From: an uncultured Actinomycetes bacterium
GTDB taxonomy: Bacteria; Actinomycetota; Thermoleophilia; Gaiellales; JAICJC01
Assembly: GCA_963723785.1 (NCBI GenBank)
Contig: CAVRSB010000004.1
Span: forward strand, 31,662 to 95,661
Direction of reading: 5' to 3'
DNA length: 64,000 bases
Part shown: positions 20,373 through 63,646 of the stretch, in pieces
Layout: each line of letters starts with the position of its first letter
How positions within the stretch are numbered: the stretch's first letter is position 1
The notes under the pieces: model-generated
The model's input: the letters and a program-made list of their open reading frames with translations, nothing else
The model's database searches: none
Told to the model about the DNA's origin: nothing
Position numbers and translations under genes: made by a program

Positions 20373-20380
20373 CTCTGGAA

Positions 20381-20403
20381 AACTCTCAGAGAACTCTCAG
20401 AAA
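20381..20403 (+). promoter_or_regulatory. phased AACTCTCAGA(G/A)A direct repeat upstream of phosphoesterase 20437..22494
   Basis: AACTCTCAGAGAACTCTCAGAAA: CTCTCA at 20383 and 20394 (11 bp). A -10-like TGTAAT/TAATGT at 20410-20417 follows about 11 bp later, the geometry of PhoB-type activation. Confidence 0.45.
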
Positions 20404-20436
20404 CTGCGCTGTAATGTAGTTGCGGGGAGGGCTCCA

Positions 20437-22561: not shown

Positions 22562-23440
22562 ATGGGCTCCCAAATACGAGTGGCAGTCATCGGACTAATA
22601 ACGACCTGCGCGTTGTTTTTGGCGATCGCCTCGCCGGCCTCCGCAGCACCACGATTGAAGCATGTGTGGGTGGTCGTTCTCGAGAACCACAGCACCGGCC
22701 AGATCCTGGGGAATCCGCAGGCGCCGTACCTGAACAAGCTGGCCCGCCGAAACGGCCTGGCAACCCGGTACTACAGCCTCGACCATCCCAGTCTTCCAAA
22801 CTACCTTGCGTTGATCTCAGGATCCACGCAGGGGTGCGGATCGGACAGCTGCAAGCCGGGGTACGGCGGCCCGCTCTTGACGCGCCAACTGCGACATCGC
22901 CACCTGGCTTGGCGGGGATATTTCCAGGGACTGCCGCACGCGGGATACATCGGTGGCGACAAAGGCTCGTACGTCCGGCACCACAACCCGTTCGCGTACT
23001 TCAAGTCGATCACCAACTCTCACCACGCCCGGCGAAACATCCGCCCGTTGACGTCACTACGGCGCAGCCTGCGCCATCCGCCGGCGTTCAGCCTCGTGGT
23101 TCCCGACAATCAGCACAACATGCATACCGGCAGCATTGCCAAGTCCGACAAATGGCTCCGCCACTGGATCCCGAAGATCATCCATTCGCGCAAGTTCAGG
23201 CATCAAAGTGCGCTCTTCATCACCTTTGACGAGGGCCACAACGACTCCAGCGGCTGTTGCCTGCGCGGCGTTCACGGGGGCCGCACGGTGCTGATCGCCA
23301 TCACCTCCCACCGGCATCGCTCGAGACTGCATAAACCTCGCACCGCATACTCGCTGCTGCGCACCATCGAGAGCGGATTCCGGCTCAAGCCGATCGCGCA
23401 CGCCTCCCGCGTCCGCCCGCTCAACGCCTTCTGGCGGTGA
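22562..23440 (+). CDS. secreted phosphoesterase family protein (PF04185-like, single domain)
   Basis: ORF 22562..23440. Signal peptide, HVWVVVLENHS...HPSLPNYLALISG...HHNPFAYF. The stop TGA lies inside palindrome copy A. Confidence 0.85.
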   Translation: MGSQIRVAVIGLITTCALFLAIASPASAAPRLKHVWVVVLENHSTGQILGNPQAPYLNKLARRNGLATRYYSLDHPSLPNYLALISGSTQGCGSDSCKPGYGGPLLTRQLRHRHLAWRGYFQGLPHAGYIGGDKGSYVRHHNPFAYFKSITNSHHARRNIRPLTSLRRSLRHPPAFSLVVPDNQHNMHTGSIAKSDKWLRHWIPKIIHSRKFRHQSALFITFDEGHNDSSGCCLRGVHGGRTVLIAITSHRHRSRLHKPRTAYSLLRTIESGFRLKPIAHASRVRPLNAFWR

Positions 23441-23469
23441 ATAATTGGTGCCTGGCACCAATTATTCAC
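23437..23469. repeat. palindromic repeat copy A (33-bp type 1)
   Basis: GTGAATAATTGGTGCC-T-GGCACCAATTATTCAC, perfect 16-bp arms. Confidence 0.95.
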
Positions 23470-23490
23470 CGTACGCCGATCAACGACTGA

Positions 23491-23515
23491 CGCCCTGAGG
23501 CGCGGCCAGCCTCAG
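23491..23515. repeat. secondary hairpin module downstream of copy A
   Basis: CGCCCTGAGGCGC GGCCAGCCTCAG: 7-bp stem CTGAGGC/GCCTCAG with a 7-nt loop. Both halves recur around 51652-51781. Confidence 0.7.
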
Positions 23516-23642
23516 CCGTAACGAGTTCGGGACGGTCCCTCTGACAGACTGAACCATCGACAGGATCCCGACCAATGCCGGTGGATCGATTCAAGGCGGA
23601 CGCCTGGGCGCAGTTGCGTGGGCCGGCCTGGCCGCGACACTG

Positions 23643-32646: not shown

Positions 32647-32679
32647 ATGAATAATTGGTGCCTGGCACCAATTCTTCAC
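32647..32679. repeat. palindromic repeat copy B (33-bp type 1, 2 mismatches)
   Basis: ATGAATAATTGGTGCC-T-GGCACCAATTCTTCAC. Confidence 0.9.
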
Positions 32680-32692
32680 TCCGGCCGCCCCG

Positions 32693-32723
32693 GTGAATAC
32701 CGGTGCCTGGCACCGTTATTCAC
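32693..32723. repeat. palindromic repeat copy C (31-bp type 2, 1 mismatch)
   Basis: GTGAATACCGGTGCC-T-GGCACCGTTATTCAC, 13 nt downstream of copy B. Confidence 0.9.
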
Positions 32724-33565
32724 TAGTACGTGCCGAACTGTTTCCAGAGTTGTTCGGCGGTATCCATGCGCCGATTGCGGGCGCCGCCCTTGCGCAAGGC
32801 GACACCTGCGGCCAGTGCCTCCAGCACCACCATGGCCGTGGCCGCGCTGGCGAAGCCGTCGCGCTTTCCCTGGCAGACCAGCACGTGATTTGCCTGACCC
32901 GCGGCCGGCGCCAGCAGGTCATCGGTGATCAGCACCACCGGCGCCCCGGCCGCGCGGAACAGCCGCACCACGTCGGCGGTCACCTTCGCGTAGCGCTGGA
33001 ACGTGAAGGCAATCAGGCGGTCGCGCGGCTCGAGGTCGATCAACTGGTCGGCGATCGTCGGCTCGCCGGCAGCGATCGGCCACACGTTCGAGAGCAGCGG
33101 GTTGAGCAGGTAGTAGGCGTACTCGGCCAGCGCCGCCGACTTGCGGTGTCCGAAGATCCCGATCTTGCCGTGTCCACGAACCAGCATCTCCACGGCGGCG
33201 TCGAACTGGCGGCGATCAACGCCCGCAGCCAGCGCCTCCAGATCACCGGCTGCCTGAAAGGCGATCTGCTCGATCGGGTGGGCCGAGGGGACGGTGCCGC
33301 GCACAGCGGGCTGCAGACGGGTGATCGCCTCGGATGCCAGCGCGTCGTGCAGCTCTGCGAACCCGGCGAACCCCACCCTGGTCGAGAACCGCACCACGGC
33401 CGCCTTGCTGACCCCGGTCTTGGCGGCCAGCGACTCGGCTGTCTCGAACGGCGCTTCCGCCGGGTGCTCGAGCACATAGGTCGCAATGCGACGGTCGTTC
33501 GGCGACAGCCGATCGAGATGGGAGCGGATCAACGCTGATACCGCCCCGTCGCCGAGGTCGATCAT
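32723..33565 (-). CDS. MurR/RpiR family transcriptional regulator (HTH_6 + SIS)
   Basis: ORF 32723..33565. N-terminal HTH (IATYVLEHPAEAPFETAESLAAKTGVSKAAVVRF) plus a SIS-like domain. The stop TAG overlaps the last base of palindrome copy C. Confidence 0.8.
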   Translation of the reverse strand: MIDLGDGAVSALIRSHLDRLSPNDRRIATYVLEHPAEAPFETAESLAAKTGVSKAAVVRFSTRVGFAGFAELHDALASEAITRLQPAVRGTVPSAHPIEQIAFQAAGDLEALAAGVDRRQFDAAVEMLVRGHGKIGIFGHRKSAALAEYAYYLLNPLLSNVWPIAAGEPTIADQLIDLEPRDRLIAFTFQRYAKVTADVVRLFRAAGAPVVLITDDLLAPAAGQANHVLVCQGKRDGFASAATAMVVLEALAAGVALRKGGARNRRMDTAEQLWKQFGTY

Positions 33566-33613: not shown

Positions 33614-36166
33614 TCAGTCCTCAGACGATGCCTCGTCGCCGTTCTCAGACGTCGGCTCGTCGTCGGCGGGACCCTCTGCGGGCACGAGATCGGCAGGCAG
33701 TGAATCGGGCACATCCACCGGCTCGATCAGCTGCAACGTCATCTCCTCGTCGCCCTCGTGATGATCGACCAGCACGGTCGATCCGGGCTGAAGCGCGCGG
33801 CCCAGAACGAAGTCGGCCAGCGGATCCTCGATGAAGCGCTGGATCGCCCGGCGCAGCGGTCGGGCACCCATGGTCGGGTCGTAGCCCTTGTCGACCATCA
33901 TGTCCTTGGCGGCATCGGTCAGCTCGATCGACACCTCGTGCACCTTCATCTGCTCGCGCAGACGCTTCATCAGCTGATCGACGATCAGCTTGATCTCGTC
34001 CTTGGTCAGCTTCTGGAACACGATGATCTCGTCGATGCGGTTGAGCAGCTCGGGCCGGAAGACCTTCTTCACGTCGCCCATGATGCGGCTCTTCATGTCC
34101 TCGTAGGACACTCCGGTCTCCGCCTCCTCGACCTGGAAGCCGAGCTGGCTGTTCTTGGCGATCGACGACGCTCCGATGTTGGAGGTCATGATCACGATCG
34201 TGTTCTTGAAGTCGACCTGACGGCCCTGAGCGTCGGTCAGCCGCCCCTCCTCCAGCATCTGCAGGAGGATGTTGAACACATCGGGGTGGGCCTTCTCGAT
34301 CTCGTCCAGCAGCACCACCGAGTACGGCTTGCGCCGCACGGCCTCGGTCAGCTGGCCGCCCTCGTCATATCCGACGTAGCCAGGAGGCGAGCCCACCAAC
34401 CTGGAGACCGCGTGCTTCTCCATGTACTCGGACATGTCGACCTGGATCATCGCGTCCTCGTCGCCGAACAGGAACTCGGCGAGCGTACGGGCCAGCTCGG
34501 TCTTGCCGACACCCGAGGGGCCGAGGAAGATGAACGAGCCGGTCGGCCGCTTGGGATCCTTGATCCCGGCGCGGGCGCGGCGGATGGCCTTGGACACGGC
34601 CTCGATCGCCACGTGCTGGCCGATCATCCGCTTGTGCAGCTCGTCCTCCATCCGGATCAGCTTCTGAGACTCAGCCTCGGTCAGCTTGAACACCGGGATG
34701 CCGGTCCACATGGACACGATGTCGGCGACCTCTTCCTCGCCGATCTGGGCATGGTCGGCCTCGCCGGAGGACTTCCAGTTCTCCTCGAGGTCGCGCTTCT
34801 TGAGGGTCAGCTTGCGCTCGGAGTCGCGCAGCGCCGCAGCCTTCTCGAACTCCTGCGACTCGATCGCCGACTCCTTCTCCTTGCGCACCGTCTCGATCTC
34901 GTCGTCGAGCTCCTTGTGCACCGGAGGTGCGGTCATCAGCTTGATGCGCATGCGCGACGCGGCCTCGTCGATCAGGTCGATGGCCTTGTCCGGAAGCTGG
35001 CGCTCCTGGATGTAGCGATCCGACAGCTCCGCAGCGGCCTGCAGCGCCTCGTCGGTGATGGCGACGCGATGGTGGGCCTCGTAGCGGTCGCGCAGCCCGC
35101 GCAAGATCTGCACGGTGTCCTCGATCGACGGCTCCTCCACCTTGATCTGCTGGAAGCGCCGCTCCAGCGCTGAGTCGCGCTCGAGGTACTTGCGGTACTC
35201 GTCCAGGGTGGTGGCACCGATCGTCTGCAGCTCGCCACGGGCCAGCGCCGGCTTCAGGATCGAGGCCGCGTCGATGGCGCCCTCGGCAGCACCCGCGCCG
35301 ACCAGGTTGTGCAGCTCGTCGATGAACAGCACGATGTCGCCGCGCTGGCCGATCTCCTTCATCACCTTCTTGAGCCGCTCCTCGAACTCACCGCGGTACT
35401 TGGAGCCGGCCACCAGAGCGGCCAGGTCAAGCGTGTAGATCTGCTTGCCCTTGAGCAGCTCGGGCACCTGGTTGGACGAGATCCGCTGGGCCAGTCCCTC
35501 GACCACCGCGGTCTTGCCGACACCGGGCTCACCGATCAGCACCGGATTGTTCTTGGTGCGGCGCGACAGGATCTGCATCACGCGCTCGATCTCGTTCTGA
35601 CGGCCGACGACCGGATCCAGCTTGCCCTCGGTCGCGAGCTTGGTCAGGTTGCGCCCGAACTGGTCGAGCAGCTTGGAGCTCTTGCCGCCCTTCTCGCCGG
35701 TCGCGCCGGTGCCCGCGCCCTGACGGCGGCCGGGGCCGGACAGCATCCGGATGATCTCGTTGCGAATCTTCTCTGCGTCGGCGTCGAAGTCGAGCAGGAT
35801 GCGGGCGGCCACGCCTTCGTTCTCGCGCACCAGCCCCAGCAGGATGTGCTCGGTGCCGATGTAGTTGTGACCCAGCGACAGCGCCTCGCGCAGCGCCAGC
35901 TCCAGCACCTTCTTGGCGCGCGGCGTGAACGGGATCTGGCCGGTGGTCACCTCGTCACCCTGGCCGACGATGCGGGCGACCTGCGCGCGCACCTCTTCCA
36001 CGGTGATATCGAGCGAGTCGAGGACACGGGCAGCGAGCCCTTCCTCCTCGCGCAGGAGACCCAGGAGGATGTGCTCAGTGCCGATGTAGTTGTGCTTGAG
36101 CGTGCGGGCCTCGTCCTGTGCAAGCACGACGACCTGGCGGGCACGCTCGGTGAAGCGTTCAAACAT
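33614..36166 (-). CDS. clpC: ATP-dependent Clp protease ATP-binding subunit ClpC
   Basis: ORF 33614..36166, 850 aa, uninterrupted. Two Clp_N repeats and two AAA+ modules ([16 protein letters not shown]). Confidence 0.95.
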
Positions 36167-36417
36167 GTTCGTGCCCCTTGTCGCTGATCTGGAAAAAGTT
36201 GGATGTCATGAAATGCTGAAGGCCGGCCTGCCAAACCGGCCGCGGATGGCTCGGTGGCATTCCGGTATCGAGGGAACGGATCGCACTATAGCACCCACCT
36301 TAACGGGCTCCCGGTGTGGTTTATTGCACGTTCGTTGGCCCCCTAATCGACCTTCTGTGACGGGCGCTTGAGGGGTTTTTCGCACCGCTGGGGAATCTGC
36401 CTGCAAATGGGCGTAAG

Positions 36418-36666
36418 ATGGACGTCGTGAATTTCGCGGTCGAACACTTCCGCGCGATCGACGCGCCGGAGTCGCCGCTCGGTATCGAGTACGTCTCGAC
36501 CGGCCAGATCGACCGGGTCGAGGCCCACGACGAGCCGGCCGCGGCAGCCATCGCGTTGTCGGCCCGCGACGACTTGCAGGAGCTCGACGTGGTGTCGTAC
36601 AACCCCGGCAAGGATCTGTACGGCGTTCTGGGCGAGGACGAGGCCGTGACGGGTGCGCCCGCCTAG
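36418..36666 (+). CDS. hypothetical small acidic protein (82 aa)
   Basis: ORF 36418..36666. Very high third-position GC, unlike the Arg/Pro-rich opposite-strand reading. No family recognised. Confidence 0.55.
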   Translation: MDVVNFAVEHFRAIDAPESPLGIEYVSTGQIDRVEAHDEPAAAAIALSARDDLQELDVVSYNPGKDLYGVLGEDEAVTGAPA

Positions 36667-37265
36667 CGCACGGGTCACCCAGCAGTTCTGCGTCGACCGC
36701 CGCGAGCCCGTCGAGGCTGGAGGTGTTCTTCTCGAGCATGTAGTCGATCAACGCCCGGTCGCCGCCCTTGCGCAGCTTGGTCTCGACCCATGCCGCCGCC
36801 TGCGGGCGCTCTCCCACCTGCTCCATCAGCGGCACGCCGAAGCCGCACGAGTCGGCGATCCGGTGCACGTCGACCACCACCACCGCCCGGCGATCAGCCC
36901 CGCCGGCGGGGGAATCGGGGTGATCGAAGCTTGCGGCCAGCTGCTCGAAGCCCTCGTCTCCGCGCTGCACGATCGTGCCGCGTGCCGTGCAGTCGCAGGA
37001 TCAGCGGCGGCCCGCTGAAGGCGCAGAACATGATCACGATGCGGCCGTTCTGGCGCACATGCGCGATCGTCTCGGCGCCGCTTCCCACCACGTCCAGGTA
37101 CGCGACCGTATGGCCGTCCAGCACCCGGAAGGTGCCGATCGGGCCCTTGGGCGACAGGTTGATGTGCCCGCCGTCGCCGGAGGGCGCCGAGCCGACGAAG
37201 AACATCGGCTGGTGCATGATCCACTCCGACAGCCGTTGATCGATGTGCTCGTGCACCTTGCCCAC
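36663..37265 (-). pseudogene. pyridoxamine 5'-phosphate oxidase family protein, frame interrupted; 3' end uncertain
   Basis: ORF 36894..37265 (N-terminus), then the frame of ORF 36206..36970 (VQRGDEGFEQL...VVVVDVHRIADSCGFGVPLMEQ...). Junction near 36975. Downstream of about 36690 the open frame is an antisense shadow of the 36418 gene. Confidence 0.6.
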
Positions 37266-37268
37266 TGG

Positions 37269-38724
37269 TCAACTCCCCTCGCGGCTGGGAGGGAAGAGGA
37301 TCACCTCGCGGATCGAGCGGATCCCGGTCAGCAGCATCATCAGACGGTCGATGCCGATGCCCACCCCGCCGGTGGGAGGCATGCCGTACTCGAGTGCCAG
37401 CAGGAAGTCCTCGTCCATCGGCGCCGCCTCGTCATCGCCGGCGGCGGCGGCCACGCGCGCCTCCTCGAACCGCGCCCGCTGCTCGGCCGGGTCGTTCAGC
37501 TCGGTGAACCCGTTCCCGATCTCCATGCCGTTGCAGAATGCCTCGAACCGCTCGGTCAGCCCGGGTTTGTCCGGCGCACGCTTGGCAAACGGCGACAGCT
37601 CGACCGGATACTCGGTGAGGAACACCGGGGCGGTGATCTTCGGCTCCACGTAGTGCGACAGCAGGTGGTCGACGGCCTGCGCCCAGGTGTGGTCGGCGGA
37701 GGTGTCGATGTCGTCGGCGCGCATGTGTGCGATCAGCCGGTCGAGGTCACGGTCGGCCATCGGGTCGATCCCCGCGTCGGCGATGATCGCGTCGCGCAAC
37801 GGCAGCCGCGGCCACGGCGGAGTCAGGTCGATCTCACTGCCCACCGCCTCGCCGGCGGCGGCCACCAGCCGCTCGGTCATGTTCATGCCGCTCTGGTAGT
37901 CGCCGTAGGCCTCGTACCACTCCAGCATCGTGAACTCGGGGCTGCGCTTGAAGCTGACGCCCTCGTTGCGAAAGTCCTTGCCGATCTCGTACACCCGCTC
38001 GAGGCCGCCGACGATCAGCCGCTTGAGATAGAGCTCGGTCGCGATCCGCAGGTAGAAGTCGCGCTCGTACGCGTTGTAGTAGGTGGTGAACGGCCGGGCG
38101 GCGCCGCCGCCGTAGAGCGGCTGCAGCACGGGCGTCTCGACCTCCACGAAGCCGTCGGCGTCCAGCACCCGGCGAAGCGCCGCGATCGCCACCGGACGGG
38201 CCATCGCCAGCGTCCGCGACTCCTCGTTGACCGCCAGGTCGAGGTAGCGGCGGCGGTGGCGCGTATCGACGTCGGTGAGCCCGTGGAACTTCTCGGGCAG
38301 CGGCCGCAGGCACTTGGCCAGCAGCGTCCACTCGGCCACCCGCAGGGACAGCTCACCGCGGCGGGAGACGAACACCTCTCCCTCGGCGGTGATCACGTCG
38401 CCCAGGTCGGAGTCCGACAGCGCGTCGTACCGATCCTCTCCGAGCCCGTCCAGGGTGGCGTGCAGCTGCAGCTGCCCGCTGCGGTCGGTGAGATCCAGGA
38501 ACATGGCCTTGCCGTGGCCGCGCCGAGCGGTGATGCGGCCGGCCAGCCGGGCTCGTTCACCGGTCTCGGCGCCCGGCTTCCAGCTCGGAGTAGCGGGCCC
38601 GCACGTCCTGCACCGGCTCCCGATCGACAGCTCGCGGCGGGTAGGGATCGACCCCCGACTCCCGCAGGACGTCGAGCTTGGCCAGGCGATCCGCCCGGAT
38701 CTGGGCTTCGGCGTCTGTGCTCAC
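37269..38724 (-). pseudogene. lysS: lysine--tRNA ligase (class II), frame interrupted once
   Basis: ORF 37269..38504 plus an N-terminal anticodon-binding part reached from GTG 38724. Junction near 38573 (GGG run). Class II motifs FRNEG and GGVGIGIDRL. Confidence 0.9.
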
Positions 38725-38736
38725 GAGAGGCGCCGC

Positions 38737-39213
38737 CTAGGCGGCTTTGATGTCCATGATCTTGAGCCGGATCGCGCCGGCCGGCGCCGCCACTTCGACG
38801 GTCTCGCCCTTCTTGTGGCCGATCAGGGCACGGCCGACAGGGGACTCGTTGGAGAGCCGCCCTGCTCCCGGGTCGGCTTCGGCCGATCCGACGATCTCGT
38901 AGGTGTCGGTGTCGCCGTGGTCGACGTCCTTGACGCGCACCTTCGACCCGACCGACACGACGTCGGTGGGCACGTCCTTGGCGTCGATCACCCGGGCCGA
39001 CCGCAGCTGTTCCTTCAGGCGCGCGATCCGATGCTCCAGCAGCGCCTGCTCGTTCTTGGCGTCGTCGTACTCGGAGTTCTCGGAGATGTCTCCGAACTCG
39101 CGCGCCTCCCGGATCCGATCAGCAACCTCGCGACGCCTGGTTGTTTCGAGTTCTTCGATCTGCGCCTTGAGCCGCTCGTAGCCTTCTGGGGTGAGGATTA
39201 CGTCCTTTTCCAC
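38737..39213 (-). CDS. greA: transcription elongation factor GreA
   Basis: ORF 38737..39294 trimmed to GTG 39213 behind AAGGA. ILTPEGYERLKAQIEEL coiled coil, SENSEYDDAK, C-terminal FKBP-like domain. Confidence 0.9.
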   Translation of the reverse strand: MEKDVILTPEGYERLKAQIEELETTRRREVADRIREAREFGDISENSEYDDAKNEQALLEHRIARLKEQLRSARVIDAKDVPTDVVSVGSKVRVKDVDHGDTDTYEIVGSAEADPGAGRLSNESPVGRALIGHKKGETVEVAAPAGAIRLKIMDIKAA

Positions 39214-39389
39214 GCTGACGTCCTTAGTTGGGGCCCATCCGGGCTCGCTCGCAAACACGAACGGTGTCGCCCCAGAGTGTGCGATTTGCAGCACTTTTCC
39301 TCTGGGCTGACACCGAGGAACGCCGGATTATACCCGTTTCCATGTGCACCGCAAACGTCGCATTCGAGCACGCTGGCTAGGATCCTGCC

Positions 39390-40459
39390 ATGAACCCGCT
39401 GACCGAGAACTGGTACATCAGGGATGTCGAGATTCCGTCCCGGATCGTGCTGGCGCCGATGGCGGGTGTCTCGGTGCAGGCGTTCCGCCGCCAGGGGCGT
39501 CGATTCGGGGCCGGGCTGGTGTGCTCGGAGATGGTTTCGTCGTGCGGGCTGTCCTACGGCAACGAGCGCACTCTGGGGTACCTGCGGATCGCCCGGGACG
39601 AGCATCCGCTGGCCGTCCAGATCTTTGGCTCCGAGCCCGAGCGGATGGCCGAGGCGGCCGAGATGGTGGTCGCGGCGGGCGCCGACATCGTCGACATCAA
39701 CTTCGGCTGCCCGGTTCGCAAGGTGACCAAGACCGGGGCCGGCGCCAGCGCGCTCGAGCAGCACGACCTCGCCTGCTCGCTTGGCCCGGGCGGTGGTGGA
39801 CGCGGTCGACGTGCCGGTGACGGTGAAGATGCGCCGCGGACTCGAGAACGGCTCGCGCACGGCTCTCGACCTGGGGCCCAAGCTCGAGGCCGAGGGGGTC
39901 GCGGCGCTGACGCTGCACCCGCGCTCGGCCAAGCAGATGTACACCGGCACCGCCGACCACACGCTCACGGCCGAGCTGGTCGAGCGCGTGTCGATTCCCG
40001 TGATCGCCTCGGGCGACATCACCGACCGCGCCCGGGCGCAGGTGGTGCTGGAGTCGACCGGCGCCGACGCGGTCATGGTCGGCCGCGGCGCGCAGGGGCG
40101 GCCGTGGGCGCTGAGCGAGATGGCCGGCGGCGAGTCGGCCGAGCCCGATCGCGCCGAGCTCTACGCCGAGCTGGTGCGGTTCATGCGCGAGGTGGTGCGG
40201 GAGATGGGCGACGAGCGCTCGGTCGGATTCCTGCGCAAGTTTTACGGCTGGTACCTGCGCGGTACCGAGGGCGCCCGCGCGGTGCGCGGCGAGCTGATGC
40301 TGTGCCAGACGGTGGACGCCGCCGAGCAGGTGCTGCTGAATGCCTGCCCCGAGGCCCGTGAGCTGCTGATCGCCCACGCGGCCGAGATCGACCTGCTGCC
40401 CGACCTCCGAGTCCGATCGCCTGCTCGACCTGCCGATCTCGATCTACGGCGGCGGGTGA
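39390..40459 (+). pseudogene. dus: tRNA-dihydrouridine synthase, frame interrupted twice
   Basis: ORFs 39390..40361 and 39781..41019. LAPMAGVS, DINFGCP, HPRS motifs. Junctions near 39775 and 40408. The high-GC3 tail (SESDRLLDLPISIYGGG) ends at TGA 40457-40459 inside palindrome copy D. Confidence 0.85.
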
Positions 40460-40487
40460 ATAACGGTGCCTGGCACCATTTATTCAC
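40456..40487. repeat. palindromic repeat copy D (32 bp; type 2 left arm, irregular right arm)
   Basis: GTGAATAACGGTGCC-T-GGCACCATTTATTCAC, between convergent dus and the GNAT gene. Confidence 0.9.
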
Positions 40488-40998
40488 CCCGACGACCTGG
40501 AGCCATTCCGGCTTGAGGCCGGGATTGACCTCGATTCGCATGCCGAGCTTGCGCATGACGCTGATCGAGGCCGAGGTTGGCGTGCTCGGTGGTGGCCACG
40601 ATCCGGGCCAGCTGCAGGTGGTCGAAGCCGAAGGCGATCAGCGCCGCAGCCGCCTCGGTGGCGTAACCCTGGCCGCGCTCGGCGGGCGCCGTTGCCCAGT
40701 ACAGACCGACCTCTGGGCGAAACCGGTGGGGATCGCTGCCGTCGCCGAGGCCGGGGATCAGCCCGAACGGCGCCAGGCACGGCACCAGCCCGACCAGTCC
40801 GACCAGCTCCCCATCGCTTTGGCGCTCCACGGCCCGTTCGCCGTAGGGCGGCTGGTTCAGATCCGCGAGCTGGGCGTATCCCGCCACGGTCCACTCGAGC
40901 CACTGGTCACGCCGCTCTCCCAGCACCCGCTGGACGCCCGCTGCATCACCGCCGGTCAGTGGACGCACCAGGAGACGTTCAGTCTCGAGCAACGGCAT
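40484..40998 (-). pseudogene. GNAT family N-acetyltransferase (RimJ/RimL-like), frame interrupted
   Basis: ORF 40480..40998 (N-terminus) continued in the frame of ORF 40242..40556 (ASISVMRKLGMRIEVNPGLKPEWLQVVG). As given the ORF stops at TAA 40480-40482. The corrected frame would stop at TGA 40484-40486. Both lie in the right arm of copy D. Confidence 0.75.
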
Positions 40999-41011
40999 CG
41001 CGCGATGATAG

Positions 41012-41042
41012 GTGAATAACGGTGCCCGGCACCGTTATTCAC
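41012..41042. repeat. palindromic repeat copy E (31-bp type 2, centre C)
   Basis: GTGAATAACGGTGCC-C-GGCACCGTTATTCAC, between the divergent GNAT and PhyH genes. Confidence 0.95.
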
Positions 41043-41056
41043 GACTAGTGCCGGGC

Positions 41057-41846
41057 ATGGGCAGAGTGGACGACTTTCAGCGAGACGGGGCGGTGGTGGT
41101 GCGGGCCGCGTTCACGCCCGCCGAGGTCGAGCAGGTCACACGCGGGATCGAGCGGAACCTGGCCGAGCCCAGCCCGCGGGCGCTGGTGGCGTCACGGGAT
41201 GACGATCCCGGGCAGGTTCTTCGAGGACTTCTGCAACTGGAGCCGCTTTCCCGAACTCGAGCAGGTGATTCGCGAGAGCCATGCCGCTGCGATCGCGGGA
41301 GAGCTGACGCGAAGCTCGCAGATCCGGCTCTATCACGATCACGTGCTCGTGAAGGAGGCTGCCACGCGCCAGCCGACTCCCTGGCACCAGGATCAGCCCT
41401 ACTACAACGTCGAGGGCCGCCAGACCTGCAGCGTGTGGATGCCGGTCGACCCGGTGCCGCGATCGGCCACGCTCGAGTTCGTGGCCGGCTCCCACCTGGG
41501 GCCGTGGCTGATGCCGCGGACATTCATGGACGGCCAGGCCAGCTGGTTCCCCGAGGGTGCGCTCGCCGACCTGCCCGACATCGAGGCCGACCGCGGCGCC
41601 TTCCCGATCATCGGCTGGGAGCTCGAGCCCGGCGATGCCGTCTTCTTCAACATGCTGACGCTGCACGCCTCCGGCCCCAGCAACGGTCTTCGGCGTGCCT
41701 TCTCGATCCGCTTCATCGGCGACGACGTGACCCACGCGCCGCGGGCCTGGAAGACCTCGCCCGAGTTTCCCGGCCTGGCCGAGCGACTGCCGGCCGGCGC
41801 GGCGATGCAGGACGAGCTGTTCCCGGTCGTGTGGGAGCGGCGCTAG
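41057..41846 (+). pseudogene. phytanoyl-CoA dioxygenase (PhyH) family 2OG-Fe(II) oxygenase, frame interrupted once
   Basis: Head in ORF 41012..42532 from ATG 41057 (MGRVDDFQRDGAVVV), body in ORF 41199..41846 (WHQDQPYY, HAS). Junction near 41211 (GGG run). Confidence 0.7.
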
Positions 41847-41849
41847 ACG

Positions 41850-42542
41850 CTACCGGCGCGAGCAGCGCCAACCCGCGCAGCGTCAGCCACGGATCGACAT
41901 GCGAGACGGTGCGACAGTGGGGAGCGACCACCTCCGAGTGCCCGCCGGTCGCCACCGCCGGCAGCTCCGCGCCCAGCTCGGCCCGAAACCGGGTGACAAG
42001 GCCGTCCACCATGGCCGCGTGCCCGAACACCGCCCCGGAGCGGATCGCTTCGGCGGTGTCGCGCTGCGATGGCATGGGCCGGGGCGTCGCAGCTCGATCA
42101 CCGGGAGTCGATCGGCGTGCTCGGTCAGCGCCGCCACCGAGATACCGATCCCCGGGGCAATCGCACCGCCCGCCCACTCGCCGGACGATGACACCACGTC
42201 CACCGTGGTTGCGGTACCCATGTCGACAACGATGCACGGCCCGCCCACCAGCGCGAACGCGGCGGCCGCGTCAGCCAGACGGTCGGCTCCCACCGGAGCC
42301 GCCGGCACCACGATCGGCGGGCGACCGGTCAGCTCGGTCACGACCGCGTGGTAGCCGGCATCGAGTGCCGGCCCGGCAGTCGCAACCACCACGCCGTCGA
42401 TGCCGTCGCCGATCAGCACCCCCACCAGCTCGCGATCGGCGTGGTCATGGTCGGTGGGGATCCGCCGGTGGGCGATCAACTCGTCGCCGTCGAACAGGCC
42501 TGCGACCGTGTCCGAGTTGCCTGCGTCGATGACCAGCAGCAC
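41850..42542 (-). pseudogene. coaX: type III pantothenate kinase, frame interrupted; 3' end approximate
   Basis: ORF 41883..42770 trimmed to GTG 42542 (LLVIDAGNSDT, VDMGTATTVD), continued in ORF 41713..42237 (DTAEAIRSGAVFG...DPWLTLRGLALL). Junction near 42110. Stop probably TAG 41850-41852 after one further indel. Confidence 0.8.
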
Positions 42543-42553
42543 TGCCGGCGTGG

Positions 42554-42892
42554 CTAGTCGTCCGACAGTTCGAAGCCGGGCGGCAGCACGGTGTCGATCG
42601 TGCCTTCGGGGCGCAGCTCCTCGACCGTCACGTCCTGGGTGGTGTGCACCTCTGCCCGCGGGATGATGCGGCTGGGCCGGTTCTTGTCCCACACCCACAC
42701 GTCCTCCATCGACAGGTGCACCATCGGGTAGGCGGTGGTGTGCTGGGACTCCATCACCAGCCGGTTGCACAGGTAGGTGGCCTCGGCCGTGAGCACGCAG
42801 TAGCGAAACATCCCGAAGACGGTTGCGTATTCGCGTTTCAGCCGGAGCTCAAGCTCGGCGTCGAACTCCTCGAGGTCCTCGAGAAACGACAT
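42554..42892 (-). CDS. DUF2469 domain-containing protein
   Basis: ORF 42554..42892, 112 aa. Conserved actinobacterial pattern (ELELRLKREY...DVWVWD). Confidence 0.75.
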   Translation of the reverse strand: MSFLEDLEEFDAELELRLKREYATVFGMFRYCVLTAEATYLCNRLVMESQHTTAYPMVHLSMEDVWVWDKNRPSRIIPRAEVHTTQDVTVEELRPEGTIDTVLPPGFELSDD

Positions 42893-42901
42893 GCCCCAAG
42901 T

Positions 42902-43404
42902 CTACGCATAAATGCGGCGGTCGCGCACGCCGATCACACCCGCACGACGCCCTGGGGCTCGATCTGCGACAGCCAGTCGCGGCGCGGTGCGTCCGCGGAT
43001 GATCGTCCCGGGGGCGATGTCGGCCAGCGGCCGCAGCACGAACTCGCGCTCGTGTGCACGCGGATGCGGCAGCTCCAGCGCGGGATCGTCGCGACTCGAC
43101 ACCGTCGTACCAGATCAGGTCGAGGTCGAGCGTGCGCGGGCCCCAGCGCCGGTCGCGCACGCGGCCGAACTCGGCTTCGATCGCCTGGAGGCCGGCGCAG
43201 CAGCTCGGCGGGAGCCAGCGGCGTCTCGAGCTCAGCCACGAGGTTGAGAAAGTCGGGCTGGTCGGTCACTCCGATGGCGGCGGTGCGGTAGGTCGGTGAC
43301 ACCGCCCGGACCTCACCGAGACGCTCGCAGGCACTCACCGCCCGGGGCAGCGTGTCCGCAGGATCCCCAAGATTCGCGCCGAATCCTACGAGCGCAACAG
43401 TCAC
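42902..43404 (-). pseudogene. folK: 2-amino-4-hydroxy-6-hydroxymethyldihydropteridine diphosphokinase, frame interrupted twice
   Basis: Pieces in ORFs 42934..43821 (VALVGFGANLGDP...), 42849..43160 (RDRRWGPRTLDLDLIWYDG) and 42902..43102 (LELPHPRAHEREFVLRPL). Start is GTG 43404, or ATG 43449. Confidence 0.85.
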
Positions 43405-43516
43405 CCGATGGGGTGCACTTTCCTTCGCGACCTTGACGAATTTGCTCATCTTTGCCGATGCTCGTGGGGGACGGCTTTTCGCGGGCCGTACCAAAGCTCC
43501 CACGCTCTGACGAAGG

Positions 43517-43831
43517 ATGACCATGTCGACCCTCATGGAATTGACCGTCGTGCTCCTGATCTGTCCGGCCGCCCTCGCCACGTGGGCCGACGCACGGTAC
43601 CCCAAGCTGCGGCCGCGCGAGATCCGGCGAACCACGATCCACCTCGGCATGACCGGCCTGATCGCGTTCGTCGCGATGAAGCCGCTGCTGAGCGAGATCT
43701 TCCAGCTGCTGTCCGGCCCCGCCGGGCGCGCAACCGCGCTGTGCATCTCCTGCATCGCCATCACGTACTGCCTGATGGTGTCGCTGTGGGTCGTGCGGCT
43801 CGCAACCGAGACCGCTCGCACCCGCCGCTAG
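43517..43831 (+). CDS. small membrane protein (hypothetical, 3 TM)
   Basis: ORF 43517..43831, high GC3, hydrophobic helices. Stop TAG lies 7 nt before palindrome copy F. Confidence 0.6.
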   Translation: MTMSTLMELTVVLLICPAALATWADARYPKLRPREIRRTTIHLGMTGLIAFVAMKPLLSEIFQLLSGPAGRATALCISCIAITYCLMVSLWVVRLATETARTRR

Positions 43832-43838
43832 GCTCGGG

Positions 43839-43869
43839 GTGAATAACGGTGCCTGGCACCGTTATTCAC
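43839..43869. repeat. palindromic repeat copy F (31-bp type 2, perfect)
   Basis: GTGAATAACGGTGCC-T-GGCACCGTTATTCAC. Confidence 0.95.
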
Positions 43870-43885
43870 AACCCACCGCTCAGGC

Positions 43886-43918
43886 GTGAATAATTGGTGC
43901 CTGGCACCAATTATTCAC
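43886..43918. repeat. palindromic repeat copy G (33-bp type 1, perfect)
   Basis: GTGAATAATTGGTGCC-T-GGCACCAATTATTCAC, 16 nt downstream of copy F. Confidence 0.95.
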
Positions 43919-44575
43919 GCCATAGCTACCTGGTGGAGGGCCGCTGCGGCTTCAGCCCGGGTGCGGGCGTTGAGCTTGCGCAGGATCGCCTTCACGTGCC
44001 AGCGCACGGTCTCGGGCGACAGGTACAGCTCGGCCGCGATCTGCCCGGTGGTGTAGCCACTGGCGATCAGCCGCAGGATCTCGAGCTGGCGGGGCGTCAG
44101 CTTCTCGCGCTGCTGCGGCCGTGGAGCCAGCTCCAGGCGCTGCTCCGCGCCGCGCACCTCGTCAAGCAGGTAGGACACCATCCGGCGTGACACCGCCGCT
44201 TCGCCACCGACCACGCCCAGCGATCGCTTCGGCCAGCCGGTCGGGCGTCTGATCCTTGGTCAGGTAGCCCACCGCGCCGGCGCGCACCGCCGCCAGCATC
44301 ACCTGTGGGTCGTGCGACTCCGACAGCATCACGACCTTGACGCCTGCGCCGACGGCGTCCAGCAACCGCCGGGTGGCAAGGATGCCGCTGCCGTCCTTCA
44401 GCTCCAGATCCATCAGCACCACATCGGGACGCAGGCGCACACCCCGCTCGATCGTCTCCAGCACACTCGAAGCGGTACCCACGACCTCCATGCCGGCGCC
44501 CTCGAGCAGCGTGATCAGCCCCCGTCGAAAGAGCGGGTGATCGTCAACAACAACAATCCGGATGGGAGCCCCCAT
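43915..44575 (-). pseudogene. NarL/FixJ (LuxR) family response regulator, frame interrupted once
   Basis: ORF 44162..44575 (receiver: VVVDDHPLFR, VVLMDLELKDGSG) plus ORF 43915..44214 (LuxR HTH: LTPRQLEILRLIASGYTTGQIAAELYLSPETVRWHV). Junction near 44215. The stop TGA lies inside palindrome copy G. Confidence 0.85.
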
Positions 44576-44596
44576 TGGTTCAGTTATACGTGGGTT

Positions 44597-44960
44597 TCAG
44601 CGGACGCGCGAGACGGTCACGGCGACGTGATCGAACGGATGCTCGATCGGTGCGTCGGGCTTGGCCACCCGCACCGCTACTTCATCCACCGGGAACTCCG
44701 CCAGAAGCGCGGCGCAGACCACGTCGGCGACCTTCTCGATCAGGTTGTAGGGGCCGCCGCTGACGAGCTCCACAACGCGGTCGCACACCGCCCCGTAGTC
44801 GACGGTGCCGGCCAGCTCGTCGTTTCGCCCGGATTCGGCGTCACTGGCCCGCAGGGTCACGTCGATCACGAACCGCTGCCCGTCGCGGCGCTCGTGCTCG
44901 AACACGCCGTGGTGGGCGAACACCTCGCAGCCCTCGGATCTCGATCAGCGGGCCGCTCAC
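44597..44960 (-). pseudogene. folB: dihydroneopterin aldolase, frame interrupted once
   Basis: ORF 44597..44923 plus the N-terminus VSGPLIEIRGL from GTG 44960. Junction near 44924 (one extra base). Confidence 0.85.
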
Positions 44961-45777
44961 CGATCCCCCGAATCGCTGCCTCGACCGCCAGCCCATGGCG
45001 CATGGCCGCACGTCGTGCACCCGCACCATCCACGCACCGGCCCGCACGGCGGCCAGGCTGGCCACCAGCGAGGCCGCCCCCGGTCGCCCTCATCCGCACC
45101 CGTGACTGCACCCCAGGAAGCGCTTGCGCGACACCCCGACCACCACCGGGTAGCCCAGCGCGACGATCTCGTCCAGCCGCCGCAGCAGCTCGAGGTTGTG
45201 CGCGAGCGTCTTGCCGAAGCCGATGCCGGGATCCACGCAGATCCGGTCGGCCTGGACACCGTGCGCGCAGCGCCCACTCCGCCCGCTCGGCCAGGAACGC
45301 CGACGACCTCGGCGACCACGTCGTCGTAGCGCGGGTCGTGCTGCATCGTGCGCGGCTCGCCCAGCATGTGCATCAGGCACACCGGCACCGCGGCGGCGGC
45401 CACCACCTCCACCATCCGCGGATCGCCGCGCAGCGCCGTCACGTCGTTGACGAAGCTCGCGCCCGCCGCCAGCGCCGCCTCGGCGACGTCGGCCTTCATC
45501 GTGTCGATCGAGACCGGCACGTCGGTCACCGCCGCGATCCCCTCGATCACCGGGATGACCCGGCGCAGCTCCTCTGCGAGCGCCACCGGCTGTGCGCCCG
45601 GACGGGTCGACTCGCCGCCGACGTCGAGCAGATCGGCGCCCTCGCTCGCCAGCCGCCCGGCCGTGCGCGATCGCCGCCGCGGCGTCCAGGAACTCGCCCG
45701 CCGTCCGAGAAGGAGTCGGGCGTGACGTTGACGATGCCCATCACCGCGGGGCCGGGGAACCGATCCAGAACGCTCAT
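44957..45777 (-). pseudogene. folP: dihydropteroate synthase, frame interrupted at least 5 times
   Basis: Pieces in ORFs 45547..45789 (MGIVNVTPDSFSDGG), 44957..45916 (LLDVGGESTRPGA...SIDT...NDV), 45090..45380 (ICVDPGIGFGKT...GVSRKRFLG) and 44841..45065 (VRVHDV). Resolved junctions near 45698 and 45657 (CCC runs). Confidence 0.85.
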
Positions 45778-45846
45778 CGGTCGGGACACTACCGACGGGG
45801 GCGCCGGGGCGGGCAGCTCGCCCCGACGCTCTCGTGGGCGAGGGGG

Positions 45847-47280
45847 CTATCTGAACGACAGGGCGGTCGCCTCGGGGATGTCGCGCTCCCAGTGGTTGGC
45901 ACTGTCGAACGTCCATCCGTGGGAAGGGCTGAGCCCCGGCACCAGCAGCTCGGTGGAGGAGTTGTTGTCAAAGCCGATGGCATCGCGGGCGCCCAGCTGG
46001 CGCAACATCGATGTCCACTGCCACCCGTAGACGCCGGAGTCGGCCGAGCCGGTGATCAGCATCGATCCCCAGCCGTTGGTGCCCATCATCACCGCCGGCC
46101 GCCAGAACCGGCCGCACCACTGGTAGCACGGGTTTTGATCCATCATCGGCGGATCCGCCCAGGGGGTCGTGTAGCGGGCGACGCCATTCTTGACCAGCAG
46201 CGGCTTCCCGCCCATCACCTCGGCGACATGCGCCCACTTGGCCGAGTCGACTGCGACCTTCACGGCCGCGGCCGGCGCCGCCGCAGCGTCCTCCAGGCCG
46301 GTGGCGGCGAAGCGGTCGGCACGCGCCACCAGCAGCGCCTGGCCGGTGTGCAGCGTGATCGACGTGCCCGCGGAGCAGACCCCGCCGGCGCACGCGGTCA
46401 TGGAGATCGGCAGGAGCAGAGAACGGGTGGCCACGCCGCGCTCGCCGAACCGGAACCCCACCACCGTCTCCTTGGCCGAGGTCGAGCTGTTGGTGGGATT
46501 GTGGTAGCCGGTCTTGGTGCCTTGCAGCATCGAGCCAAACGGGCTGGGGACCGCTGCGCTGCCCAGTATCACTCCGATCATCCCCGAGGGGATCTTGAAG
46601 GCGACATTGTGGGCGGTCGCGACCGCCACCTGATCGCCCGGCAGGTCGCCGGTCTTCGAGGCCAGACTGCCGGGGGACGACACGAAGCTGCCGATGGTAG
46701 TCAGCCCGCCGTGGGGCAGCGAAATGTTGGCAGGCACCGCCCGAGGGTTGCCGAACACCATCCCGCCGGGCTGGCCGCCGAGGCCCTTGGTCTCGTACCC
46801 GACGCCGGGACCGCCCCAACCGAACGCATCGACCGTTCGCGCGCGCACCAGCATTCCGCTGGGGTAGCCGCCGTACCAGCCCTTGTACCCGAAGAAATCG
46901 CCGTTGAGGGCACCCACAAGGCCCTTGGGGCCGCTGCGCGTCCAGCTGGAGATGGTGGCCAGGGCGATCGATCCCACAGGGCTCAGGGGGCGCAGCGCCT
47001 CCGCGTCCAGGTGCACGTGTGAATCGCCCACCTTCCACGACAGCTGGTAGATGTTCTGCGTGGGGCCGCCGCGCATGGCCGCGTGCAGGCGAGTGAGCGT
47101 CACCACGGGGTGTCCACCGGCGCGCCGCAGCGTCTTCACACAGGGCGAAGAAGCGCAGCTCAACTTGGTGATCGGCCCACTACCGTGAAGGGTCAGCGGC
47201 CCAGCCGCCGCGCTCGGCGCAAACGCCAGCAGCGCGACAGCCGGGGCCGCAAGCACGACCCCCCTGCCTCGAAATCGCAT
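45847..47280 (-). CDS. secreted protein, phosphodiester glycosidase (NAGPA/DUF2233)-like C-terminal domain
   Basis: ORF 45847..47280, uninterrupted, with signal peptide. The C-terminal region resembles DUF2233. Weak family call. Confidence 0.5.
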   Translation of the reverse strand: MRFRGRGVVLAAPAVALLAFAPSAAAGPLTLHGSGPITKLSCASSPCVKTLRRAGGHPVVTLTRLHAAMRGGPTQNIYQLSWKVGDSHVHLDAEALRPLSPVGSIALATISSWTRSGPKGLVGALNGDFFGYKGWYGGYPSGMLVRARTVDAFGWGGPGVGYETKGLGGQPGGMVFGNPRAVPANISLPHGGLTTIGSFVSSPGSLASKTGDLPGDQVAVATAHNVAFKIPSGMIGVILGSAAVPSPFGSMLQGTKTGYHNPTNSSTSAKETVVGFRFGERGVATRSLLLPISMTACAGGVCSAGTSITLHTGQALLVARADRFAATGLEDAAAAPAAAVKVAVDSAKWAHVAEVMGGKPLLVKNGVARYTTPWADPPMMDQNPCYQWCGRFWRPAVMMGTNGWGSMLITGSADSGVYGWQWTSMLRQLGARDAIGFDNNSSTELLVPGLSPSHGWTFDSANHWERDIPEATALSFR

Positions 47281-51588: not shown

Positions 51589-51621
51589 GTGAATAATTGG
51601 TGCCTGGCACCAATTATTCAC
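51589..51621. repeat. palindromic repeat copy H (33-bp type 1, perfect)
   Basis: Identical to copies A and G. Lies in the 211-nt gap between the hydrolase gene and the 51018 gene. Confidence 0.95.
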
Positions 51622-51651: not shown

Positions 51652-51781
51652 CGCCCTGAGGCGCAGGCCGTTGGGTCTGTGGCAAGGATCGAGCCGCGAG
51701 CGGAGCGCAGGCGTGGCAAAGCCACGGCGAGCACCGCACGCGGCGTGGGACGCCGCCACAGACCCAACGGGCCAGCCTCAG
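51652..51781. repeat. secondary hairpin module downstream of copy H, carrying a nested insertion
   Basis: CGCCCTGAGGCGC (51652-51664) and GGCCAGCCTCAG (51770-51781) match the copy-A module but are separated by about 105 nt that form a long extended stem. Confidence 0.7.
51670..51768. repeat. 99-bp MITE-like or hairpin insertion bounded by 14-bp perfect inverted repeats
   Basis: GTTGGGTCTGTGGC (51670-51683) and GCCACAGACCCAAC (51755-51768), flanked by GGCC on both sides. The interior holds a smaller hairpin, CGTGGC-AAA-GCCACG. Confidence 0.6.
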
Positions 51782-63614: not shown

Positions 63615-63646
63615 GTGAATAAACGGTGCCTGGCACCGTTATTCAC
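63615..63646. repeat. palindromic repeat copy I (32 bp, type 2 with one extra A in the left arm)
   Basis: GTGAATAAACGGTGCC-T-GGCACCGTTATTCAC, between the ctaG-like start and the clpS stop. Confidence 0.9.

Follow-up and report, generated by a model that had tools for sequence, protein, structure and literature searches.

We analyzed a 64-kb window (contig CAVRSB010000004.1; 64,000 nt in all) from the 68% G+C genome of an uncultured Gaiellales-like actinomycete, in which two convergent genes meet at a short palindrome. On the plus strand, dus (tRNA dihydrouridine synthase) occupies 39390–40459, and on the minus strand a RimJ/RimL-like GNAT gene occupies 40444–40998, as placed by homology. The palindrome at their 3′ ends, which we denote copy D (40456–40487), is 32 bp long and reads GTGAATAA-C-GGTGCCTGGCACC-AT-TTATTCAC, with unequal spacers (C and AT). 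It is one of nine copies in the 64 kb, about one per 7 kb, of a near-perfect palindrome of 31–33 bp with the consensus GTGAATAA-N1-2-GGTGCC(T/A)GGCACC-N1-2-TTATTCAC. This stem-forming repeat sits at gene ends and undergoes turnover within genomes, and its arms are used as stop codons far beyond chance.

The dus and GNAT genes at copy D

The coding phase of dus shifts twice, at an apparent 1-nt indel near 39760 and at an extra C at 40399–40401. With the extra C discounted, the gene ends at TGA 40457–40459 in the left arm, as a sequence-only reading of this DNA had proposed. Translation of 40403–40462 gives ...DRLLDLPISIYGGG up to this stop (protein end ...PISIYGGG), and a related locus that does not have the extra C (L106; loci are given by L numbers) encodes an intact 355-aa Dus ending at the same arm TGA.

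The GNAT gene behaves differently from what that reading had claimed. The frame that matches its homologs (...MRKLGMRIEVNPGLKPEWLQVVG) reads GTG AAT AAA on entering the arm, the phase that reads through. In four assemblies it crosses a 33-bp copy, adding the tail VNKWCQAPFIHPPP, and stops at a TAG 10 nt past the palindrome and within the last dus codons, giving a 16-nt overlap of the two genes (L106 and the Logan contig L107, both 99% identical to the window in GNAT protein sequence; the JGI contig L202, 78%; and L201, 76%). By homology, the window GNAT should stop at TAG 40444–40446, with the same 16-nt overlap with dus. In the sequence as given, its frame is disrupted both by an extra G near 40573 and by the 32-bp palindrome; because copy D is 32 bp long, the homologous frame misses the TAG and runs to 40242. 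The 32-bp length may be an error, or it may be a real partial conversion to the C..G subtype. Two right-arm stops had been proposed for GNAT, and neither survived: the open reading frame (ORF) ending at TAA 40480–40482 is in the wrong frame, downstream of the extra G, and TGA 40484–40486 needs a deletion in GGGG 40487–40490 that L106, L107, L201, and L202 do not support.

The proposal that one copy ends both convergent genes thus fails at copy D, where GNAT reads through, and holds elsewhere. In L108 (82% protein identity), GNAT ends ..VMNRGE at an arm TAA and Dus at the TGA of the other arm, 19 nt apart, and both convergent genes are ended by 11 of the 137 copies sampled below. In L200, the GNAT stop lies in a decayed arm remnant just before the copy. 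GNAT tails vary between orthologs (..GVALFGEGA, ..GCDE, ..GVMNRGE, and ..GVNKWCQAPFIHPPP), and the position of the copy after dus is kept at 79% DNA identity. At an element-free GNAT/dus junction (L203, 1020–1121), the GNAT ORF meets no stop nearby and extends antisense into dus for 89 nt; its tail (..RRRRSRSAGRACGRT..) resembles the frameshifted GNAT tail of the window and may reflect a real overlap or an indel error.

Over 12.5 kb (window positions 34448–46974), the alignment to L106 is 95.9% identical, yet it has 71 gap openings. One of these sequences, or both, comes from a long-read assembly rich in indels, which accounts for the numerous disrupted window genes, among them dus, GNAT, and PhyH. 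The single-base indels in the window look like long-read assembly error, and ORFs there need to be read with care. The palindrome itself is not an assembly artifact: it is also present in MEGAHIT/Illumina-type and JGI assemblies (L003, L074, L202) and in Logan contig L107.

Sequence and predicted structure of the palindrome

Each copy is built from a G+C-rich core (GGTGCC-W-GGCACC), a spacer of 1–2 nt, and A/T-rich outer arms, GTGAATAA on the left and TTATTCAC on the right. The window contains 15 occurrences of the octamer GTGAATAA, where 0.07 would be expected, and each of them is a palindrome arm; there are no isolated arms in the window. Direct reading bears out that an arm has stops in two separate frames, with TGA at offset 1 and TAA at offset 5, and that this holds on both strands. 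The third frame (GTG AAT AA.) is open across the whole palindrome, again on both strands.

We gathered 154 cores from the window and loci L001–L105, which together represent the window and about 10 related soil metagenome-assembled genomes (MAGs) of Gaiellales-like Actinomycetota. Of these, 137 were classed as good copies (both arms with at most one mismatch). Spacers are of equal length in 130/137 copies (1+1 in 67 and 2+2 in 63), and the spacer pairs C:G, AA:TT, TT:AA, AT:AT, CC:GG, AC:GT, and TC:GA are complementary in nearly all copies. The center base, T or A, is the only mark of orientation. Copies end GTGA...TCAC in 85%–100% of arms; beyond GTGAATAA and TTATTCAC, flanking pairs are complementary only at chance level, and no target-site duplication was visible at the copy junctions examined. 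The predicted RNA folds of copies have 14–18 pairs, −24 to −30 kcal/mol, and z-scores of −3.7 to −6.3, and the predicted fold of a doublet reaches −65 kcal/mol.

Spacer subtypes are genome-biased. Of 13 sites that are orthologous between MAGs (flanks about 90% identical), seven differ in subtype with both arms changed, and often with the center base flipped too. Copies have therefore been replaced or homogenized and not simply inherited.

Arms supply stop codons far beyond expectation

The repeat's position relative to genes was determined with a codon-usage log-odds score trained on 110 long ORFs (96% sensitivity on held-out data, and 6% false calls on open antisense windows). Calling genes by third-position G+C content (GC3) alone produced false incoming genes, such as a shadow ORF at 39781–41019 that seemed to end at the TAA of copy E; the codon-usage classifier was therefore adopted, and the conclusion was the same. 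Three cruder gene callers gave the same picture.

Among the 137 copies, 48 lie in convergent, 38 in same-direction, and four in divergent contexts, and a further 26 have one incoming gene and an unclear opposite side. Where genes run in the same direction, the next one can begin close behind the copy (median ∼35 nt). The 160 incoming genes end in an arm TGA (49) or an arm TAA (33), 82 arm stops in total; at their own stop 3–30 nt upstream (50) or 31–120 nt upstream, often of the far unit of a doublet (26); or at their own stop sharing 1–2 nt with the arm (two). None of the 160 reads through the palindrome, and two cases of read-through were found by other routes.

Overall, 134 of the 160 incoming stops lie inside a copy or at most 30 nt away. 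For stops falling within −30 to +5 of a copy, 82/134 are in the arm against 7.4 expected under uniform placement (binomial p = 3e-67). At least one stop is supplied by 71/137 copies, and by 63/123 sites when orthologous sites are merged. Across the three frames, all stops are distributed 25:70:60 and the genes' own stops 25:21:27. Own stops near copies are frame-neutral, and the arm stops are therefore an excess over a uniform class. The excess is sharp: the exact-overlap offset has 49 cases, compared with ∼2–3 per neighboring position. Own stops near copies are depleted in TGA (19/52, against 62% of 482 background stops) and enriched in TAG. Tails ending in E are ∼5x over-represented, with 21 GE and eight RE among arm-TAA genes against a 6% background. 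The evidence that the arms act as stop codons is strong, and the overlaps are far too frequent for coincidence.

Arm stops coincide with ancestral stops in conserved proteins

If the repeat had inserted into gene ends and replaced native stops, truncated or replaced C termini would be expected as a rule, as had been suggested. Comparison with element-free orthologs gave a different result for proteins with conserved ends. In ClpS, 115/120 homologs (67%–96% identity) end ..APLxxx(G/A) at the position of the window protein. In Dus, the ..YGGG tail is invariant: 78/78 metagenomic relatives (63%–80% identity) end there, with TGA, TAG, or TAA, and none of the 78 has the palindrome. QueD (L090) ends ..CTYAGE, aligned to the E. 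coli QueD chain end ..CIYRGE, and ProA (L068) ends ..GHVRE, aligned to the T. maritima ProA chain end ..YHVRE; for these two, the arm read as GGT/CGT GAA TAA equals the ancestral last two codons (GE or RE) plus the stop. Judged from these alignments, the arm stop lies at the ancestral position in all four conserved C termini (ClpS, Dus, QueD, ProA), with no truncation. The sequence-only reading had named matching C termini in element-free orthologs as a result that would count against it, and on that test the idea of truncation fails. L074 Dus (79% DNA identity) has its own TAA 5 nt before the copy and an unchanged protein end, and identical tails are found with differing arrangements in L027/L062 (QYE) and L049/window (DFL).

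Two empty sites, found via protein look-ups, show what a filled site replaces. Among loci selected by the sequence pattern, orthologous sites were filled, or held a half-deleted copy (L075), with essentially none empty. At the clpS junction, L109 reads GGC TGA C GTG, the GTG being the ctaG start, and the window reads GGG TGA ATAA...TTATTCAC CCG TGG. The TGA is kept and the flanks align on both sides, with 10–13 nt replaced, including the annotated ctaG start. Relatives L109, L112, and L114 have a clpS/Caa3_CtaG gap of 1–3 nt (TGA-N-GTG) and no palindrome. In the window, the next in-frame GTG of ctaG lies 6 nt past the copy, about six codons downstream of the L109-annotated start. The Dus empty site (L203) reads GGC TGA, and filled sites read GGG TGA ATAA. 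The proposal of insertion in or just after 3′ ends with loss of the native stop thus stands as to location, and it does not stand as to the stop, since the TGA stays at both empty sites.

Tails that are free to vary tell another story, and here the idea of replaced tails stands. The ends of GNAT, the phosphoesterase, and Dtd are remodeled by the arm over a few residues. The phosphoesterase ends ..FWR in the window and ..FWVHSGARHRHVR in L098 (FW-VHSGARHRHVR), where a decayed copy (GTGCATAGCGGTGCCAGGCATCGCCATGTAC; 7003–7080) is translated as the tail, which ends at the TGA of an adjacent intact copy. The Dtd tail RPRGGRE is longer than in solved homologs, and TruA ends one residue past a conserved Y.

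Other copies in the window

The stops that had been assigned to copies elsewhere in the window were all recovered. Copy A (23437–23469; 33 bp, TT..AA subtype) ends the phosphoesterase ORF 22562–23440, which matches Pfam Phosphoesterase, with TGA 23438–23440. Copy C (32693–32723; left arm GTGAATAC) shares the G of its right arm with the stop of an rpiR-type gene, TAG 32723–32725 on the minus strand. It forms a doublet of 46-nt period with a ninth copy (32647–32679; ATGAATAATTGGTGCCTGGCACCAATTCTTCAC), which the original inventory had missed and which was found by a core search. Copies F (43839–43869) and G (43886–43918) are the first and second units of another doublet: the plus-strand ORF 43511–43831 has its own TAG 10 nt before F, and TGA 43915–43917 on the minus strand, within G, ends a GerE/LuxR-type regulator. 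Copy I (63615–63646), in the clpS–ctaG junction, ends clpS with TGA 63643–63645 on the minus strand. Copy E (41012–41042), with an unusual center C, is flanked by divergent gene starts, that of GNAT (40998, minus strand) on one side and that of PhyH (∼41057, plus strand) on the other.

Copy H (51589–51621) has an ortholog in L049 whose arm TGA ends the upstream gene. In the window, an insert of ∼128 bp (51654–51781) resembling a miniature inverted-repeat transposable element (MITE), absent in L049, separates the gene end from the copy. The insert has ∼28-bp terminal inverted repeats (CCTGAGGCGCAGGCCGTTGGGTCTGTGGC ... GCCACAGACCCAACGGGCCAGCCTCAG), and its end (CTC TGA GG) supplies the gene's stop at 51778–51780 on the minus strand, leaving the protein tail ..DFL the same as in L049. 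A remnant of this insert lies at 23470–23517, and a related copy is found in L002 at ∼3145–3298. Separately, a 297-bp tandem duplication at 20986–21576 (2.0 copies, 99% identical) inside the large ORF 20245–22494 repeats a ∼99-aa module (..DTVAPSVPQNVAATGDSPTSVHITWNAS..).

Distribution of the family

A scan of genome contigs found, among the matches listed, >105 palindrome-bearing DNA blocks from ∼10 MAGs, and the hosts among these matches were soil MAGs only: several "uncultured Actinomycetes" MFD bins, one Gaiellales MAG (MEGAHIT assembly), and one GS_HAYS MAG. The named protein neighbors of ClpS, Dus, and GNAT are Gaiellales. The palindrome had no match in viral contigs, Rfam had no match in the window at gathering score, and a literature search for the motif returned only unrelated operator sites.

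Hairpins with the same core are found more widely. At dus loci of other lineages (258 kb), the core 11-mer GTGCCWGGCAC occurs 10 times, and 10/10 occurrences are within 150 nt downstream of the dus stop. These hairpins have different arms (examples are L118 2595, L143 2560–2700, L150 2564–2590, and L174 2580), and in L143 they form three tandem doublets of 56-nt period. The pattern hints at a broader superfamily or at a hairpin site that is conserved downstream of dus.

Interpretation: a probable REP-type family, with proposed placement on gene ends

We interpret the palindrome as a repetitive extragenic palindrome (REP)-type interspersed family of a Gaiellales-like actinomycetotal clade, with the placement and RNA role described here, and give this reading a probability of roughly 0.6. 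The features of a REP in the broad sense are present: a stem-loop palindrome of 31–33 bp, many dispersed copies, and an extragenic position near 3′ ends.

In a 68% G+C genome, the arms would be the only stop-rich sequence near gene ends, and the palindrome may be placed on, or collapse onto, a gene's own end. A native (G)TGA would become the first bases of the arm, and a native ..G/R-E-stop would become (G/C)GTGAATAA. With the native stop becoming the start of the arm, conserved C termini would be left untouched, and where tails are free to vary, an arm or a decayed copy could rewrite them. Random insertion followed by selection would probably not produce the exact-overlap spike, and the paucity of read-through and the conserved C termini agree with this.

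Two routes can be envisaged. Insertion or copying could be guided by microhomology or a target, such that the outer stem is formed from a native ..TGA and a TCA(C) close by; as both filled sites have GGG in place of GGC, the first arm base lies within the converted tract. Alternatively, small deletions between a native stop and the arm, through repeats such as TGA/TGA or GGTGAAT/GGTGAAT, could make overlap an absorbing state. Both routes would fit, and the two empty sites do not separate them.

As RNA, the repeat would place a strong stem-loop at or overlapping the stop in both directions and might serve, like other REPs, as a 3′-end barrier or stabilizer. With its A-tract, GC stem, and U-rich tract, it could also be a partial bidirectional terminator. 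The enrichment of convergent contexts, the number of canonical terminator-like sites being no higher than chance, and the same-core hairpins after dus in other lineages would favor such a role as well. Supplying a stop would then be a by-product, not the purpose.

A bolder form of this proposal, in which the palindrome homes on the stop itself, strikes us as a long shot. Here, a gene's own (G)TGA or ..GAA-TAA-like end and a nearby TCA(C) would be the anchors, the protein would be unchanged, and the stop-in-stem hairpin would couple the end of translation to transcript 3′ end formation in both directions. If true, this would be a repeat family with target and function both defined by the stop codon.

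Several observations weigh against the REP-type reading as a whole. The end tag of the palindrome is GTGA, not the GTAG or CGTC of the REP superfamilies linked to REP-associated tyrosine transposases (RAYTs) (PMC3733652); with full two-fold symmetry, the tag stands at both ends, unlike the one-ended GTAG/CGTC. No transposase-like ORF was seen by eye between closely spaced copies, where there are ordinary genes, and whole MAGs were not scanned for RAYT; we therefore file the family as REP sensu lato, not as a member of a RAYT-linked superfamily. The few imperfect copies show no excess of G-U over A-C mismatches. As to a role in termination, the core stem is followed by (UU)UUAUUCAC, or UUUUAUU in AA..TT subtypes, a U-tract that is short and interrupted; in a simple terminator scan (5-of-8 T rule), only copy D passes; and strong termination would be harmful in same-direction contexts and at the clpS–ctaG junction. 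Copy E occupies a 58-nt gap with no 3′ end, and in L106 its right arm has decayed. Neither empty-site comparison shows a clean insertion (10–13 nt replaced, n = 2). Finally, copies were sampled by requiring an exact core and one exact arm, leaving decayed copies under-represented, and gene ends were called by our own classifier on indel-rich nanopore MAGs.

Alternative explanations

The palindrome could instead be a dedicated portable bidirectional intrinsic terminator, kept by selection, with stop overlap coupling the end of translation to hairpin formation. We regard this as a possibility to be held tentatively. It would account for the AATAA(AA)-stem-(UU)UUAUU layout and for the enrichment of convergent contexts (48/137 copies). 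Canonical terminator-like sites in 32–52 kb are at chance (six vs. 5.8), so something else must end transcripts, and both the retention of the post-dus position at 79% DNA identity and the same-core hairpins directly after dus in other lineages are in its favor. It fits poorly with the short inner stem and weak U-tract, with the many intercistronic copies that have no room for a promoter, and with copy E between divergent starts; and the replacement of subtypes at orthologous sites resembles repeat dynamics, not site-by-site selection.

Less easily reconciled with the data, and in our view unlikely, is a selfish element in which a transposase (RAYT/IS200-like or other) inserts beside (G)TGA, the arm TGA being the target. 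Native TGA makes up 62% of stops and is retained at the two empty sites, the exact-overlap spike is what such targeting predicts (49 cases vs. ∼2–3), the sampled genes show no read-through (0/160), and genes with TGA plus a copy outnumber those with TAG plus a copy 68:26, near the 2.2:1 background. In addition, 23% of TGA-overlapping arms, and 3% of others, begin with C. Set against this, copies far from stops also have GTGA at both ends, and the change of GGC to GGG between empty and filled sites shows that the G arrived with the palindrome. A TGA target leaves the 33 TAA-frame genes unexplained. Both arms are used in 11 copies, the orientation bias of the center base is mild (55:30), and neither a target-site duplication nor, by eye, a transposase-like ORF between close copies was seen.

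It is doubtful that insertion into the last codons, with loss of the native stop and truncated or new tails, is the general rule. The differing GNAT tails, the two phosphoesterase ends (..FWR and the L098 tail), the overlong Dtd tail, and the ∼5x enrichment of E-ending tails (21 GE, eight RE) are what it would predict. Yet 4/4 proteins with conserved C termini end at the ancestral residue, and random insertion predicts that one third of genes would read through, where we saw 0/160 and the two cases from other routes.

A DNA-level site (a dimeric regulator operator, a nucleoid or gyrase site, or a DNA-uptake signal in inverted pairs) is very improbable: the two-fold symmetry is perfect, the TGAAT/ATTCA half-sites resemble ARG-box halves, and E. 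coli REPs bind gyrase and IHF, but a copy every ∼7 kb with nearly all at 3′ ends, seven complementary spacer pairs that fit a stem and not a fixed protein site, the lack of isolated arms in the window, and a half-site spacing of 21–23 bp that is wrong for an ARG box all speak against it.

Other known element types were considered and rejected. An ARG-box or other operator has the wrong half-site spacing and copy number. The core contains TGGCAC, as in a sigma-54 promoter, but the −12 element is wrong; to our knowledge, the phylum is generally without sigma-54. A MITE would be 50–500 bp long, compared with 31–33 bp here, and no target-site duplication marks the junctions examined. For an integron attC, AATAAC / GTTATTC fail the core sites RYYYAAC ... 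GTTRRRY, and the flanking genes are housekeeping genes (clpS, dus, proA).

The REP-type reading would have several consequences. It adds a clean, high-copy REP-like family to a poorly known uncultured soil actinomycetotal clade with scarce canonical terminators. It also shows how far a repeat can join coding ends, with about half of the flanking genes using it, some copies serving two genes, and a few copies translated. For the annotation of nanopore MAGs, the palindrome can help to mark true gene ends and to reveal frameshift errors. The position of the arm on the ancestral stop in 4/4 conserved proteins points to a placement mechanism, either guided insertion or deletion-driven collapse, and the family offers a natural system for hairpins overlapping stop codons.

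Comparison with known systems

Bidirectional intrinsic terminators consist of a symmetric A-tract, a G+C-rich stem-loop, and a U-rich tract and lie between convergent genes. The palindrome shares this A-tract/stem/U-rich layout and the convergent placement; unlike such terminators, it is a near-identical sequence repeated many times, its U-tract is short and interrupted, and many copies are intercistronic. Within the Actinomycetota, mycobacterial interspersed repetitive units (MIRUs) are intergenic repeats whose ends overlap flanking stop or start codons, arranged as tandem direct repeats of 40–100 bp with small ORFs, and the TRIT of M. tuberculosis is a repeated conserved terminator hairpin. 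Our family is likewise an actinobacterial intergenic repeat that overlaps gene ends, or a repeated hairpin, but MIRUs are not palindromes, and the palindrome has no sequence similarity to either.

The closest likeness is to REPs and REP doublets/REPINs; REPs are found mostly between convergent and same-direction ORFs, <20 bp from 3′ ends, and, when convergent, <20 bp from both ORFs (PMC3733652). REP termini often provide the stop codon of a flanking ORF (Di Nocera et al. 2013; PMC3733652), and some copies, lying inside ORFs, are translated (PMC3733652). Like REPs, short palindromes of 20–40 bp in high copy that occur as singletons and doublets and form species- or genome-specific families, the palindrome sits at 3′ ends in convergent or same-direction contexts, uses its arms as stops, and is sometimes translated (PMC3733652). 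It differs from them in having two stop frames (TGA and TAA) per arm, A/T-rich arms against a 68% G+C genome background, an arm stop in about half of the flanking genes, and an uncultured Gaiellales-like actinomycetotal clade as host. As with Rickettsia palindromic elements (RPEs) and intragenic REPs (PMC3733652), in-frame reading contributes residues to a protein, as in the GNAT tail VNKWCQAPFIHPPP and the tail of the L098 phosphoesterase; unlike in those systems, translation is rare here (0/160, plus the two other cases) and confined to C-terminal tails.

In E. coli, stop-proximal REPs stall ribosomes (Liang, Rudd and Deutscher 2015, as cited in PMC12306157), and 260/496 REPs, or 11% in a newer census, lie at most 15 nt from a stop. 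Our family is similar in having a strong hairpin near the stop (here predicted from sequence) and different in that the stop is inside the stem for about half of the flanking genes. Both the stop-supplying behavior and the kind of element are already known; the exact landing of the arms on ancestral stops is worth following.

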